Source: Octopus vulgaris
Taxonomy: Eukaryota
Assembly (NCBI GenBank): GCA_951406725.2
Contig: OX597816.1
Span: 83,514,001 to 83,578,000, forward strand
DNA: 64,000 bases
Reading direction: 5' to 3'
In this document: positions 3,193 through 49,288 of the stretch, one piece after another
How the letters are laid out: each line of letters opens with the position of its first letter
Numbering within the stretch: position 1 is the first letter of the stretch
The notes under the pieces: generated by a model
The model's database searches: none
What the model saw: the letters and a program-made list of their open reading frames with translations, nothing else
Told to the model about the DNA's origin: nothing
Made by a program: the position numbers and the translations under genes

Positions 3193-3374
3193 CTCTCTCT
3201 CTCTCTATAAATATAATGGCTACCGAATAATTGTCACATTATATTTACAGATAAATTCCTCTGTTTACAGAGAATCGAGGTCTCTTTCATTCTTTTGTTG
3301 TCTTACCATTTCTATTAATACATACATACATGCATACATGCATACATACATACATACATACATACATACATACA

Positions 3375-3410
<36 letters not shown>

Positions 3411-3420
3411 TATATGTATA

Positions 3421-3578
3421 GAAATTATATATAAAATATAAATTACAAAGTGGGACAAGAACGCAAAAACACACAGAGACGACACAAAAAAAACAGACGG
3501 GTCACTCGAAGCTTCTAATCTTCAGTCGGAACCGGATCATCTTAGCAATTTCGGCTGTTTAATCTCGATATCACTCCG

Positions 3579-3582
<4 letters not shown>
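3421..3582 (-). mobile_element. (TA)n-embedded short element, family P3
   Basis: About 160 bp of complex sequence between TA arrays. T-rich 3' part on minus strand like P1/P2. Carries a permuted HHR relic. Confidence 0.5.
3510..3575 (-). ncRNA. Degenerate non-circularly permuted hammerhead-like motif (family P3)
   Basis: Minus: AGUGAU-A-UCGAGA-uuaaacagcc-GAA-AUUGCU-(linker)-UUCCGA-CUGAAGA. Stem III 6 bp (2 G-U), stem I 5 of 6 pairs, stem II not formed in this copy. Confidence 0.4.
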
Positions 3583-6756: not shown

Positions 6757-7208
6757 AAAACTTGTGTTTCTTTCTTTCCTTCTGTTTCAGCTGGGGAGAG
6801 CAGAAGCATTCTTGTCTGTCTTCTCTCCAAGCTTACTCCTCCGCATTCGCCACCTCACCTCGTTTAGGCTTAGCACCCCTTCCTGTTTGTTTTCATTGTC
6901 CTGTTTTTGTTACCAATTTTGACCCTCCTCAAAATCCTAAATGTTATTTAATTTGCTTAGCGGGAGCAACTGTTTTATCGAAGGCGTATCTTGTCGCGAA
7001 TTGTTCGAAATACGGATTATAAAAACAACTAACAACTGATGAGGGTCATTCTTTGTTTTGCTTGGCTTATTTTCCATTTGTTTCTCTTCTTGTTCGCAAA
7101 AAACGTTCATATTCCATGTATTCGTATTTCGTATTTCGTATTTCGTAATTCATGTTTTCGTATTTTATATTGTTTACGTTCTGTGATGTCCTGCGGCCAA
7201 ACATGCAT
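6757..7208 (+). mobile_element. (TA)n-embedded element, family P2
   Basis: Aligns by eye to the reverse complement of 21033-21340 (gagcaactgttttat, caactgatga.gggtcattcttt, catattccat). Confidence 0.65.
6985..7051 (+). ncRNA. Non-circularly permuted hammerhead-like ribozyme (family P2)
   Basis: CGUAU-C-UUGU-cgcgaauug-UUC-GAA-AUACG-(17 nt)-ACAA-CUGAUGA-GGGucauuc. AUC triplet. Stems I and III covary relative to family P1. Stem II is weak. Confidence 0.55.
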
Positions 7209-7949
7209 ATATATATATACGTATATATGTAAGTATGTACACACACACATATATGTATATATATATGACAGCCACTGACAGCCGAACGTTCAAACGCATA
7301 CACGTACACAAAAAATGTTTTCTACCCCTACGCCAACACACACATATATAGAACAGTATACACACACACACGTCTCTAAGTAGATTTTTTCTCGCCCCTT
7401 ATAAAACATCCAATATTCCTTAAATAGTCAGAACTTTATTCTCGGTCACAAAGAACACCCACACACCCTCACCCACATGATTGACCGATGCCTGACCCGT
7501 TAAATTCTTCAGCCACCGGTTCTCAACATACACTGATAAACAGTTTCGCCATGGGCTCTTAGGAGCATAGTTCGATTTGTTTTTGCTCCGCCTCTGTTCT
7601 GTTTTTGTTTTTCCAACGGATTTCCTATTTTCTTCCTGAAGAGAAAGACACAATATGGTCCCATTATTCAATCGGATTTTGGTAATTTGTGCCTTTCGAA
7701 ACACGTGTAGAATGAAATAAAACGATTTCTGTTCAATCTGCGTTCAGCTCCATTTCTTCAATTCACCAATAATGTTTTAATTTCAATTATCCGCACCAAC
7801 GAACGGTTGCAACACCATATGGTTGTACCTTCAACCGTGCTGTTTACTGCTGTGATTTTTGCTACTAAGGTATCGGTTAAACTTTTGATTAATCTACTAC
7901 AAGATTATTCATCTTTCTATTTCACATAATTATATATATATATGTATAT

Positions 7950-8140
7950 ATTATATTAAATTAGAGATAAAACCACTATTAGGCAAATCAAACAGTGAAA
8001 AACATAATGTTTCCGACGAAGAGCTCCGCTCGAAACGTTAAACCCTCCTTCTTCCCTTCTTTCCTGAGCGTCTAATAATACTTTATTTGTTCCACGTCCT
8101 TGCGTTGTTATGTTTTTTTGTTTTCTTGTTTGGATTAACT
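7950..8140 (+). mobile_element. (TA)n-embedded composite element, family M2
   Basis: 8007-8140 matches the reverse complement of 29000-29130, and 7960-8006 matches the reverse complement of 29503-29550. Carries a minimal HHR. Confidence 0.6.
8009..8043 (+). ncRNA. Minimal type I hammerhead-like motif with CCGACGA core variant
   Basis: GUUU-CCGACGA-a-GAGC ucc GCUC-GAAACGUU-AAAC. Confidence 0.55.
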
Positions 8141-8145
8141 ATATA

Positions 8146-8221
<76 letters not shown>

Positions 8222-20483: not shown

Positions 20484-20988
20484 TAATTTATATATAGAGG
20501 GCATTATTATACATACATGCCACACGCTAAGAGGGACAAAATTAGTCATTTCTACCAAAAATTTTACTAATCCCACCGAATGCAATTTTTCAAAGTAAGA
20601 CATTTAAAAATATGGACTTGTATCACCTGTGATTTCATACCTCTGTATTCATCAGCAAGTCTGGACGCATCATAAATAAACGAACCCAACTCGTCTAAGC
20701 CGAGCAACTATCTGATCAACTTCAACGAAGCACATGGGTGGGTTTACATATATTACATCCGGTAAATGGCAGACTTTTACGAATTGCATTTCGGGAAAGG
20801 AAAAGTTTTTTCGGAATAAAAATTTAGCAATTATGGACAACTTCTTAATAAGGAAAACTTAACAAGAAATTATCGGGTAGATAGCGTGAAAAACCTCATA
20901 AAAGAAAAAATTTCGAAAATAATTCTTTCTTATTGAACATATTAATTTATATATAGAGGGCATTATTATACATACATGCCACACGCTA
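20484..20988 (-). mobile_element. Non-coding HHR-bearing element (Penelope pLTR/retrozyme-like), 459-nt unit with 46-nt direct terminal repeats
   Basis: taatttatatatagagggcattattatacatacatgccacacgcta is identical at 20484-20529 and 20943-20988. (TA)n on both sides. Contains the HHR at 20615-20661. Confidence 0.7.
20615..20661 (-). ncRNA. Canonical type I hammerhead ribozyme
   Basis: Minus strand GACUUG-CUGAUGA-AUAC agag GUAU-GAA-AUCA cagg UGAU-A-CAAGUC. Intact core, 6-bp stem I, 4-bp stems II and III, AUA cleavage triplet (predicted cut between 20621 and 20620). Confidence 0.85.
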
Positions 20989-21032
20989 TATATATATATA
21001 GATATAGATATGTATGTATGTATATATATATA

Positions 21033-21340
21033 TGCATAGGTGGACACAGGACGTCACGAAACGTGTACAACAAAATAATACGAAGTACGAGAATATGGAA
21101 TATGAACTATTTTTTCGAACAACGAAAGACACAAATGGAAAACAAGACGAACAATATAAAGAATGACCCTTCATCAGTTGTAGTCTGTTTTTTTTTTTGC
21201 TCTCGTATTTCGATCATTTAACAACAATATATGCTTTCAATAAAACAGTTGCTCTCGTTAAGCAAATTAAATAAAATTTGGGATTTTGTGGAGGGTCAAA
21301 CAGAACAGTGAAAGCAAACAGGGAGGGCTGCTAAGCTTCA
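21033..21340 (-). mobile_element. Family P2 copy
   Basis: Reverse-complement homolog of 6870-7208, abutting (TA)n. Confidence 0.65.
21162..21233 (-). ncRNA. Non-circularly permuted hammerhead-like ribozyme (family P2)
   Basis: Minus: CAUAU-A-UUGU-uguua-AAUGAUC-GAA-AUACG-(linker)-ACAA-CUGAUGA-ag-GGUCAUU. 7-bp stem II possible, one mismatch in stem III. Confidence 0.55.
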
Positions 21341-27378: not shown

Positions 27379-27610
27379 AAACATATTTAGAAATGGATGC
27401 GTGCGTTCCTTGTATTGTATGTCCTATATTTTTTTGTTGTTTAAGAAAAAAGTCCATTTCCGTGGTTTTGTGTTTATGTTTTCGTTTCTGATTGTGTTCG
27501 ACGTTTTTTTGGTGTCCTGTACCCATATATGCATGTATATATTCATGTAGATGTAGGTACGTACATATATGTATGTATATATGCATATGCTTTATTTATT
27601 AATTTGTTAT
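27374..27610 (+). mobile_element. 5'-truncated family P1 copy lacking the ribozyme
   Basis: Similarity starts at 'ttccttgtattg', just downstream of the ribozyme block. Same tail, flanked by (TA)n. Confidence 0.6.
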
Positions 27611-27613
27611 TAT

Positions 27614-27644
<31 letters not shown>

Positions 27645-29000: not shown

Positions 29001-29194
29001 AGAAAACACAAAAAAAAAAAAACAAAAAAAAAACACAACAACGCGAGGACGTGGAACAAATATAGTATTATTGGACGCTCAGGAAAGAAGGAAGAAGGAT
29101 GGTTTAATGTTTCTTCGTCGGAAACATAGGAGAAGGAAAGAACCCGAGAAGGGAAGACAGAGGGAAAAAAATCGACAACGGTACTCACGAGGTC

Positions 29195-31759: not shown

Positions 31760-32325
31760 ACTGGCAGAAACGTTAGCACGCCGGGCGAAATGCTTAGCGG
31801 TATTTCGTCTGCCGCTACATTCTGAGTTCAAATTCCGCCGAGGTCAACTTTGCCCTTCGTCCTTTCGGGGTCGATTAAATAAGTACCAGTTACGCACTGG
31901 GGTCGATATAATCGACTTAATCGGTTTGTCTGTCCTTGTTTGTCACCTCTGTGTAGCCCCTTGTGGGCAGTAAAGAAATAGGTATTTCGTCTGCTGCTAC
32001 GTTCTGAGTTCAAATTCCGCCGAGGTCGACTTTGCCTTTCATCCTTTCGAGGTCGATTAAATAAGTACCAGTTACGCACTAGGGTCGATATAATCGACTT
32101 AATCCGTTTGTCTGTTCTTGTTTGTCCTCTCTGTGTTTATCCCCTTGTGGGTAGTAAAGAAATAGGTATTTCGTCTATCATTATGTTCTGAGTTCAAATT
32201 CCGCCGAGGTCGACTTTGCCTTTCATCATTTCGGGGTCGATAAATTAAGTACCAGTCTCGTATTGGGGTCGATCTGATCGACTGGCCCCTCCCTAAAAAT
32301 TTCGGGCCTTGTGCCTAGAGTAGAG
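31760..32325 (+). mobile_element. SINE group B, trimeric array
   Basis: Three tandem units of about 190 bp, inverted relative to 15715-16282. Confidence 0.9.
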
Positions 32326-39439: not shown

Positions 39440-39854
39440 TTTGTAACTTATAATTAAAGATGTGTAAATAAATTTTCCTTGTCTCCTTTTTTTCATTGGG
39501 TTCTTTATTTGTACTGTTTTTTTCTTCATTTGTATTGCTTTTACATCCTGTTCTTGTCACTTTTTTTACCCCTCTGCAAAAGAATTTTATTTAATTCATT
39601 TTGCAGGAAGGATTGCTTCGGTCGTATCGTGTTCTGCCCTTACCTTCGAAACACGCATTGAGTCGAAACAGGGGCAGCTGAAGAAGGGGAATATTCCTTG
39701 TATTGTTTGTCTTGTACTCTGTTTTTTCGTTGTTAAAAAAAGTCCGTTTCCTTGTTTGATTTTATGTTTTCGTTTCTCGTTGTGTTCTACGTTTATTCAT
39801 GGTGTCCTGTACTCATATATGCATGTATATATACATATAGATGTAGGTATGTAC

Positions 39855-39887
<33 letters not shown>

Positions 39888-45372: not shown

Positions 45373-45375
<3 letters not shown>

Positions 45376-45735
45376 ATTTTATTTTAATTCTCTCGAGAGA
45401 AGGCCTAGCATGACCAGACGTGTCCTGTCTTGCCTTCGAAACACGCTATGTCTGCTAGCGACAGCTGATGAAGGGGATTTTTCCTTGTGCAGCATGTCCT
45501 GTACTTCGTTTTTCTGCTTTACACAATTGTTTTTCCCGTTTTCGTTTCGTCTTGTTCCACGTCTCTGTCCTTCTGTTGTAACAAAATGGCTTTTCCGTTT
45601 TCGTTTCTGTTGATTTTTACGTCTTCTTGTGGTGTTCTGTACGTATATATATTTATATATGCATGTATATATACATGTAGATGTCGGTACGTACATATAT
45701 GTTTGTATGTATGCATATATTTTATTTATTACACT
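45373..45735 (+). mobile_element. (TA)n-embedded non-coding element, family P1 (Penelope pLTR-like)
   Basis: Shares 3' tail 'gcatgtatatatacatgtagatgt.ggtacgtacatatatgt' with the 39.6 kb and 27.4 kb copies. (TA)n on both sides. Confidence 0.65.
45419..45476 (+). ncRNA. Non-circularly permuted hammerhead-like ribozyme (family P1)
   Basis: CGUGU-C-CUGUC-uugc-CUUC-GAA-ACACG-(14 nt)-GACAG-CUGAUGA-a-GGGG. Stem III 45419-23/45441-45, GUC triplet, stem I 45425-29/45460-64, stem II 45434-37/45473-76 (two G-U pairs). Confidence 0.7.
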
Positions 45736-45892
45736 ATATATATATATATATATATACATACATACAAAGTGTGGGGATTTAGTTCACAGGTGATTTAAAC
45801 GACTAGGTACACTGGGTAAGTGCTGTTACGGATTACTGGGGCTCCAAGTTTATAGCCAAGACGGTAGTTATAGAGCCATTGTAGATTTCCGA

Positions 45893-48144: not shown

Positions 48145-48585
48145 GGCTGCGAGCTGGCAGAAACGTTAGCACGCCGGGCAAAATGTGTAGCAGTATTTCG
48201 TTTGTCTTTACGTTCTGAGTTCAAATTCCGCCGCGGTTGACTTTGCCTTTCATCCTTTCGGGGTCGACAAATTAAGTACCAGATGCGTACTGGGGTCGAT
48301 CTAATAGACTGTTCCCCTCCCCCAAAATTTCGGGCCTTGTGCCTAGAGTAGAAAAGAATATTTTAAAGAAGGCGGCAAGCTGGCAGAAATGTTAATACGC
48401 CGGGCGAAATGCTTATCGGAATTTCGTCCGTCTTTACGTTCTGAGTTCAAATTCCGCCGCGGTTGACTTTGCCTTTCATCCTTTCGGGGTCAATAAATTA
48501 AGTACCAGTTGCGTACTGGAGTCGATCTAATCGACTGGCTCCTTCCCCCCAGATTTCGGGCCTTGTGCTTAGAGTAGAAAAGATT
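48145..48585 (+). mobile_element. SINE group B, two tandem monomers
   Basis: 48145-48358 and 48370-48585, each with complete head and tail. Confidence 0.9.
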
Positions 48586-49288
48586 ATATTAGACATTTCG
48601 ATTTTATCTTTGAATTCGTTTGATACCCAAGGCTCTTTAAAGTGTAGTAATCGAACACACGAACATCGTGACAATCAGAATGGTATAGTTTTAGCCATAA
48701 AAATTATTTTGTATAGAAGATAAATATAAAGTAGTAAGCTTTATACTTTCCGCAATAATTAATAGTCATTATAATTGAAATTGCATCAACCACAACTGGG
48801 CCACGTTAAATCGTTTTATCAGACAAGATTCACTGTGAACTCATAATGAGTGTATCGCATATCTATAGGTTATATCTGTCACAGTAGTAAATTATGGCCA
48901 CTAACATAGGAGAGACAAATGATGCCGCGCCCAGAATCAGTTGTTCCTTTACAATTTCATAGCAATTTACTTAACATTTATGGTTAAATGTATTTTCGAT
49001 TATTAATTAGAGCTGTTTCAGCTCATCACGTGACCAATTTTAGCTTTTGATGCAAGTCCAAGCCTGAAATCAGAGTATTAAGACAGTTTAGTATATAATC
49101 CTGATCTTGACAGTGGGGTAGTCTTAGTTCTAACAGGTAGTGAATTATCAGAGCCAATAGAATACTGCGCAGCCGGCTCACTATATTATGATATTAATAC
49201 TAGTGACGACGCCTTGTATTCCTTCGATGTCAATAAATAGTACTTGCCAAGTAGTGGGGCTGTTTATTCTCTTCCAACATCTGTCTAG

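Follow-up and report, generated by a model that had tools for sequence, protein, structure and literature searches.

The window, the whole 64-kb stretch of DNA analysed here, carries a 5'-truncated copy of the P2 repeat, flanked by a (TA)n-rich microsatellite. The P2 monomer is about 820 nt long (821-823 in the spacing of a head-to-tail pair at locus L017) and has no open reading frame, the longest frame that opens with Met being 34 aa. The following features were placed at this locus, the ends of the repeat having been set by blastn against 29 other genomic copies.

6759..7266, + strand: P2 repeat copy, 5'-truncated
6921..6926, + strand: 5' strand of stem IV, GACCCU, whose partner is the bases directly 3' of CUGAUGA
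6927..6963, + strand: hairpin V, between the 5' strands of stems IV and II
6964..6969, + strand: 5' strand of stem II, GAGCAA, with G6964 as G10.1
6970..6976, + strand: 5' strand of helix P
6985..6996, + strand: block S, with the stem III 3' strand CGUAU, the predicted cleavage nucleotide C6990 (AUC site) and the stem I 5' strand UUGUCG
7001..7014, + strand: block G, with the stem II 3' strand (7001-7006), G12-A13-A14 (7007-7009) and the stem III 5' strand (7010-7014)
7022..7028, + strand: 3' strand of helix P
7030..7042, + strand: 3' strand of stem I (four pairs left in this copy) and the CUGAUGA core (7036-7042)
7043..7047, + strand: 3' strand of stem IV

The original prediction described a permuted hammerhead at this place, and the letters that it quoted are all where it put them: CGUAU at 6985-6989, C6990, UUGU at 6991-6994, GAA at 7007-7009, AUACG at 7010-7014, ACAA at 7032-7035 and CUGAUGA at 7036-7042. 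The blocks were thus located correctly, but the structure begins at about 6921, beyond the range assigned to it. Two compensatory changes relative to P1 had also been claimed and are present, G-C to A-U in stem III and C-G to U-A in the first pair of stem I; we take the P1 of that comparison to be the copy at 45420-45476, whose same two pairs recur in the copy at 39629-39690. A distal helix of UGUUUU (6971-6976) and AAAACA (7022-7027) does exist, but it is better read as a tether between stems I and II, our helix P, than as the extension of stem III that had been proposed.

Compared with the P2 majority, the window copy lacks one A of the family's CUGAUGA-AGGGUC (A9/stem IV), has four pairs instead of six in stem I, carries two mismatches in hairpin V, has one G-C of stem II changed to G.U and has lost one pair of helix P. 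It fails the full IV-V-II-III-I descriptor and, judged by these letters, is probably inactive or slow.

A pseudoknot-aware descriptor scan that covered all six hammerhead block orders, and was not tuned to P2, recovered the motif in the 64-kb window. C6990 was found in the order S-G-C, together with sites 39633 and 45424, against a null (40 dinucleotide shuffles) whose mean was 0.025 S-G-C matches per window with the loosest setting and 0 with stricter ones. The P2 motif gave no parse as any of the circular types I, II and III (CGS, GSC, SCG), and Rfam at gathering threshold had no match in the window. Four further copies with the motif lie in the window.

3342..3579, - strand: truncated copy of the Q superfamily, with the same ribozyme design; core at 3525
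20987..21336, - strand: second P2-type copy, more decayed; core at 21177
39474..39880, + strand: P3 copy; site 39633; alone among the window copies in passing the full IV-V-II-III-I descriptor
45373..45756, + strand: P1 copy; site 45424; without the stem IV 5' strand, because the truncation falls inside hairpin V

Several other repeats were seen in the window. A 3' fragment of a P3/P1-like element at 27406-27632 has no ribozyme. An ordinary type I hammerhead occupies 20587-20655 on the minus strand (predicted site 20621), having 6 pairs in stem I, 4 in stem II and 5 in stem III, all Watson-Crick, and is missed by Rfam at gathering threshold. A short multi-copy repeat ending in (TA)n, at 8007-8197 (+) and near 29121 (-), has a type I-like hammerhead core that reads CCGACGA, not CUGANGA. 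Tandem SINE-like repeats of 180-230 nt, at 31799-32283 and 48145-48591, are presumably of the cephalopod tRNA-derived SINE kind.

The genome (2.8 Gb, 227 contigs) was searched for the P-type repeats and gave 3,280 candidates for P2, 1,584 for P1 and 3,318 for P3, of which 40 each were scored; among these, the best copies were 85-89% identical in P2 and 94-98% in P1 and P3. The three are homologous in their 3' halves (P2-P3 67-72%, P1-P3 71-79%). The copies show 5' truncation and a (TA)n end, and partial tandems, inverted pairs and short tails are found among them; the monomers measure 0.7-1.0 kb, have no long open reading frame and carry the ribozyme motif near the 3' end. Such structural marks are those given for Penelope-like elements in the available text of PMC8557442, and the P repeats show the non-autonomous form in each respect: 5' truncation, partial tandems, inverted copies, a tail, a (TA)n target and no ORF. 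The monomers of P2 and P3 share a 37-nt start (L017 at ~1900; L067 at ~1020) with a splice-donor-like motif of AG/GUAAGU type, which recalls the intron reported from the 5' UTR of Penelope-like elements.

A genome pattern that fixed only YCGAAA and the CUGAUGA context had 5,970 matches, compared with 9 for the reversed control. A second one, which fixed only GAAA and CUGANGA, had 16,477 against 1,105 for its control and exposed the Q superfamily after the fold had been derived from P. The helix letters of Q are quite different, and its representatives have the same IV-V-II-P-III-I fold, stem IV beginning in Q1 and Q3 only after two mismatches. Ten of the 11 representatives parse to one fold, the exception being subfamily C (6 mostly truncated copies). 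With one P2 and one P3 locus dropped for want of a recognisable core, the strict descriptor was passed by 7/29 copies of P2, 19/30 of P1, 19/29 of P3, 6/20 of Naiad (see below), 5/30 of a first loose set and 9/30 of the Q set; the full descriptor had 0 matches in 60 shuffled windows. At L218/L219 (G000 C1:468457 and 469170), Q3 units of 713 nt lie head to tail; they are 99% identical, and each passes for a split ribozyme. The suggestion that the permuted topology is conserved across a clade of elements was borne out: P1, P2 and P3 are homologous, and at least 10 subfamily representatives share one fold with different letters.

From 5' to 3', the strands of this fold run IVa, hairpin V, IIa, Pa, a stem III strand, the cleavage base, Ia, a short linker, IIb, GAAA, the other stem III strand, Pb, Ib, CUGANGA and IVb. 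In the partner of stem II the fold departs from the original prediction, which had paired UUC before GAAA with GGG after CUGAUGA. Six subfamilies were compared through their majorities (29 copies of P2, 8 of B, 30 of P1, 29 of P3, 6 of D and 20 of Naiad). The pairing first proposed is Watson-Crick in 12 of 36 cells (27 with G.U), and registers on the same side without an extra base reach 9/36, versus 33/36 for the upstream partner at 6964-6969. That partner lies 62-72 nt upstream of the core and has double changes in 4/6 columns. The first assignment of stem II is therefore probably wrong, as far as these comparisons go, and the bases that it gave to stem II form the 3' strand of stem IV. Stem IV is paired in 36/42 cells with 4/7 columns double-changed, and hairpin V, which abuts stems IV and II, in 49/54 cells with 9/9 columns double-changed. 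Helix P lies at one end within 0-4 nt of the 5' strand of stem II and at the other adjoins the 3' strand of stem I; it is paired in 30/30 cells, a count that leans high because the best register was taken for each family. All six majorities retain G10.1-C11.1, U16.1-A15.1 and an NUH site.

The same helices were then counted in alignment A2, which holds 17 individual P-type copies only. Helices IV, V, II, III and I are 93.4% paired there, as against 38-50% in slid controls, and 14 of the 27 pairs have changed in both strands; helix P was excluded from this count because MAFFT had shifted it by one column. Upstream stem II is 100% and stem IV 90.6% paired, and 5/7 pairs of hairpin V are changed on both sides, while in these rows the stem II of the original prediction reaches 76.5%, mostly through G.U, with one double-change column. 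Stems I, II, III, IV and V and helix P all covary across the subfamilies, and these covariation counts span related subfamilies, not independent events, with the structure derived from the same sequences. When the 5' leader was shuffled, a contiguous IV-V-II came back in 0.3-1.2% of trials with the P subfamilies and in 15.6% with Naiad; in the octopus Naiad majority, stem IV is weak, with 3 Watson-Crick pairs. The loop of hairpin V (6938-6950 in the window copy) keeps a UUAUUU-like run in the P subfamilies and in the octopus Naiad while its stem covaries, and this run could possibly be a protein or tertiary contact.

Chance complementarity in a decayed repeat could draw on the short helices in U-rich sequence and on the degenerate state of the window copy. 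We regard it as hardly credible, given nulls of 0-0.025 per window, thousands of copies and compensatory changes in every helix.

A more serious alternative is that the plain type SGC fold of the original prediction is the active one and that the upstream pairings are an off state, the two switching by strand exchange. That fold keeps the core contiguous, like all validated hammerheads in the consulted part of PMC10085705; with one extra base after A9 it can make four pairs in the P subfamilies, so a second, minor conformer is possible there, and one of its columns changes from U.G to G-C. Besides its low Watson-Crick count, however, it makes at most 2 pairs in the octopus Naiad, and its duplex energy is -3.3 to +1.1 kcal/mol, compared with -5.7 to -11.6 kcal/mol for upstream stem II. 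In 10/10 parsed representatives, the duplex energy is also better for IIa:IIb together with IVa:IVb than for the competing IVb:IIb; RNAfold, for which pseudoknots are out of reach, returned hairpin V and parts of P/III or II when run on the subfamily majorities. By eye, in the passages available from PMC8557442, the coral, hydrozoan, box jellyfish and ostracod Naiads have no G for C11.1 directly after CUGAnGA, so that a contiguous stem II is impossible beside the core there, though C11.1 is kept. We therefore consider the switching model unlikely.

What is found, then, is a hammerhead core with an unusual connection. The core letters CUGANGA, GAAA and NUH are present, with the window copy one A short at A9/stem IV, and stems I, II and III adjoin the core with U16.1-A15.1 and R10.1-Y11.1, G10.1 coming from the upstream strand. 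Block C, which comprises the stem I strand, CUGAnGA and the stem II strand in the sections of PMC10085705 available to us, is not intact in the P2 motif: no stem II strand directly follows CUGAnGA. Because the strand before GAAA and the bases after CUGAUGA both pair upstream, two helices, stem IV and hairpin V, are predicted to stack and to take the place of the backbone link from A9 to G10.1. If the IV/V insert is taken as one A9-to-G10.1 linker, the cyclic order would be that of SGC and CSG ribozymes, the split form would thus be a further opening point of the same circle, and helix P would be their stem I/II interaction helix. That a core broken at A9-G10.1 is tolerated is assumed here, because no precedent was found. 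On the strength of the sequence comparisons, we hold with good confidence that the element at 6759..7266 is a decayed copy of a hammerhead-type RNA with a non-circular order and a split core, intact copies of which likely cut themselves once per unit.

The same design occurs in Naiads. In the portion of PMC8557442 that we consulted, these elements are reported to be without canonical hammerheads, some of them, Naiad_Ovul included, bearing the unexplained marks 'HHR_core' or 'HHR_half_core'. A pattern for the 3' end of the octopus Naiad had 134 exact matches in the genome and 0 in the control. At locus L157, GIY-YIG, RT and the motif follow each other on one strand, and at L116 an RT thumb is followed by the 3' UTR. 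The motif lies downstream of same-strand RT remnants, in the Naiad 3' UTR, in 7 of the 11 RT-bearing regions fetched, and decayed versions were seen in 4 of 16 further, more divergent ones. GIY-YIG stands upstream of RT, with none downstream, at L157, L161 and L165. All these copies are broken; no intact Naiad was present among 45 hits from 76 candidates scored (longest open frame 206 aa) or among another 150 scored of 2,778. The P and Q monomers have no blastn similarity to the Naiad 3' UTR, and no RT remnant was found within 1.5 kb of P or Q loci. The ribozyme design is shared, and stem I has identical letters in P3 and the octopus Naiad; a descent of P2 from Naiad would have this design as its only basis.

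We also inspected the Naiad consensus file of PMC8557442 by eye, at CTGATGA places 1-60 of 62 and at places 3-11 of 23 (CTGACGA), 43 (CTGAAGA) and 25 (CTGAGGA). Within these passages, the full split fold was seen in Naiad_Amil, Aacu, Anas, Obim and Ovul and, assigned through the order of the file, in one Clytia, two Morbakka and one Darwinula element, a range that spans coral, hydrozoan, box jellyfish, ostracod and octopus; a squid passage fits it in part. The contiguous type CSG with a I/II helix was seen in nematode and spider Naiads, namely Naiad-1, -2 and -3_Nbra and Naiad_Smim, besides two more passages from the nematode part. Either form is thus found in at least 15 of 54 Naiads among the places listed, and neither in the bivalve passages listed. 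One arthropod Naiad (PMC8557442, same passages) appears by eye to have another split form, in which stem II is a local hairpin before GAAA, hairpin V is absent and the bases after CUGACGA pair just upstream of the stem II hairpin. From these letters, the split motif is likely the self-cutting RNA that Naiads were reported to lack.

It may be asked whether the fold, though derived from a hammerhead, no longer cleaves and is kept as a 3' signal bound by the Penelope-like RT. RT recognition signals are usually located near the 3' end. The motif sits there too, and for a split core we found no tested precedent. Against such a loss of activity, CUGANGA, GAAA and UH (H = A, C or U, never G) are all kept while the helices covary, and the nematode and spider Naiads by eye carry contiguous CSG, a type shown to cleave (PMC10085705; PMC8557442, both as far as available). 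We think a non-cleaving signal improbable, slightly more so than the switching model. A dimeric or trans hammerhead between two tandem units or transcripts, as in minimal Penelope hammerheads, would avoid pseudoknots and would suit the partial tandems and inverted pairs in which copies are found. Yet every strand has a full-length partner within 125 nt of a single unit, stem III has no palindromic short loop, and the inter-helix linkers resemble those of the monomeric SGC-3 construct (oligo table by eye, in the consulted part of PMC10085705), which makes a two-unit arrangement very improbable.

With reasonable confidence, though less than for the P2 element itself, we propose that Naiads across animal phyla carry non-circularly permuted hammerheads; that a cnidarian/ostracod/cephalopod lineage uses a hitherto undescribed active form broken at A9-G10.1 and rebuilt by two extra, stacked helices, which would be a seventh connectivity beyond the six thought possible; and that in octopus this form has multiplied to more than 20,000 non-autonomous, retrozyme-like copies. 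By analogy with retrozymes, cleavage 3' of the NUH site would release monomers of 0.7-0.9 kb from tandem transcripts; these might form circles, and a Penelope-like RT/GIY-YIG protein acting in trans would copy them into (TA)n, as has been proposed for non-LTR retrozymes (PMC7229834; bioRxiv 10.64898/2026.07.22.740005, both as far as available). Contigs assembled from four sequencing runs span the P1 stretch, but ends are not visible in them, and they carry no weight in this reading.

Copies of P1, P3 and Q3 are young, whereas all Naiad copies found are broken, and among the elements examined no helper was identified for the young P1, P3 and Q copies. At L197-L200 (G000 C18, C1, C10, C7) we observed a young intact Penelope-like element, 97-99% identical between copies, with tandem and inverted pLTRs and a 753 aa open frame for an RT with a C-terminal GIY-YIG. 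By eye, its 3' UTR contains a minimal type I hammerhead in which the C3-G8 pair is swapped to U-A and stem III is palindromic. We rejected it as the source of the P 3' end, because the P-type copy at L198 was inserted separately and the 3' UTR of the element itself is unrelated. The element is a candidate helper in trans.

The non-circular type SGC has already been described and shown to cleave (Eckert et al. 2023, PMC10085705). According to the available parts of that study, 583 SGC sequences, with 176 SGC variants, came from RefSeq, metagenomes and metatranscriptomes, HRIMA-1 being listed as RNA from soil, spruce and sludge; the words 'octopus' and 'cephalopod' are absent from its supplement text. 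The P2 motif has the type SGC order (cleavage site, GAAA, CUGAnGA from 5' to 3') and, in helix P, the helix that tethers stems I and II. With SGC and CSG ribozymes as described in these parts (PMC10085705), the octopus motif shares the core letters, the cyclic C-S-G block order, the short stem I-to-II linker and the I/II tethering helix. Block C is held unbreakable there, with at most one or two inserted bases, whereas the octopus chain has its opening between A9 and G10.1, where stem IV and hairpin V are inserted. Were our reading true, it would overturn the explicit premise in that text that CUGAnGA and the stem II strand are inseparable. Non-circular permutations, so far rare finds in metatranscriptomes, would then number tens of thousands of copies in the genome of an animal, and the split form would provide a natural connectivity in which the RNA ends leave from within the core, a docking site useful for engineered switches.

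A single extra base after A9 is known from viroid work. The core insertion variants of Perreault et al. 2011 (PMC3088659, in the text available) tolerate small insertions where the backbone points outward, but these are of one or two bases, compared with helices and a chain break in the octopus motif. The literature searched, from which subscription papers were mostly outside coverage, contained no hammerhead with a helix inserted at A9-G10.1 and no permuted hammerhead tied to Naiads or animal genomes.

To Naiads as described in the consulted part of PMC8557442, the octopus elements are alike in the N-terminal GIY-YIG followed by RT of the autonomous copies, in (TA)n targets and 5' truncation, and in partial tandems, inverted copies and short tails; the P and Q repeats differ in lacking an ORF and in showing, apart from the design of the ribozyme, no detected likeness to the Naiad 3' UTR. 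If the split form is real, Naiads seemed to be without the hammerhead known from other Penelope-like clades because standard descriptors miss it, and the nematode and spider CSG together with the split form elsewhere suggest a traceable series of RNA permutations arising via tandem duplication in retroelements.

Non-LTR retrozymes (PMC7229834; bioRxiv 10.64898/2026.07.22.740005, both as far as available) are likewise non-autonomous tandem repeats with one hammerhead per unit and a tie to Penelope-like elements. They are defined by type I hammerheads and accumulate as monomeric and circular RNA, and the 2026 pipeline searched with canonical and minimal type I models only (bioRxiv 10.64898/2026.07.22.740005, same scope). 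The P and Q units have no such type I hammerhead; their ribozyme is split and follows a non-circular permutation, the majority of copies stand singly and are truncated, and circular RNA is a prediction for them. We conclude that the non-circular order itself is known, and that what is new is the split core and its setting in animal retrotransposons.
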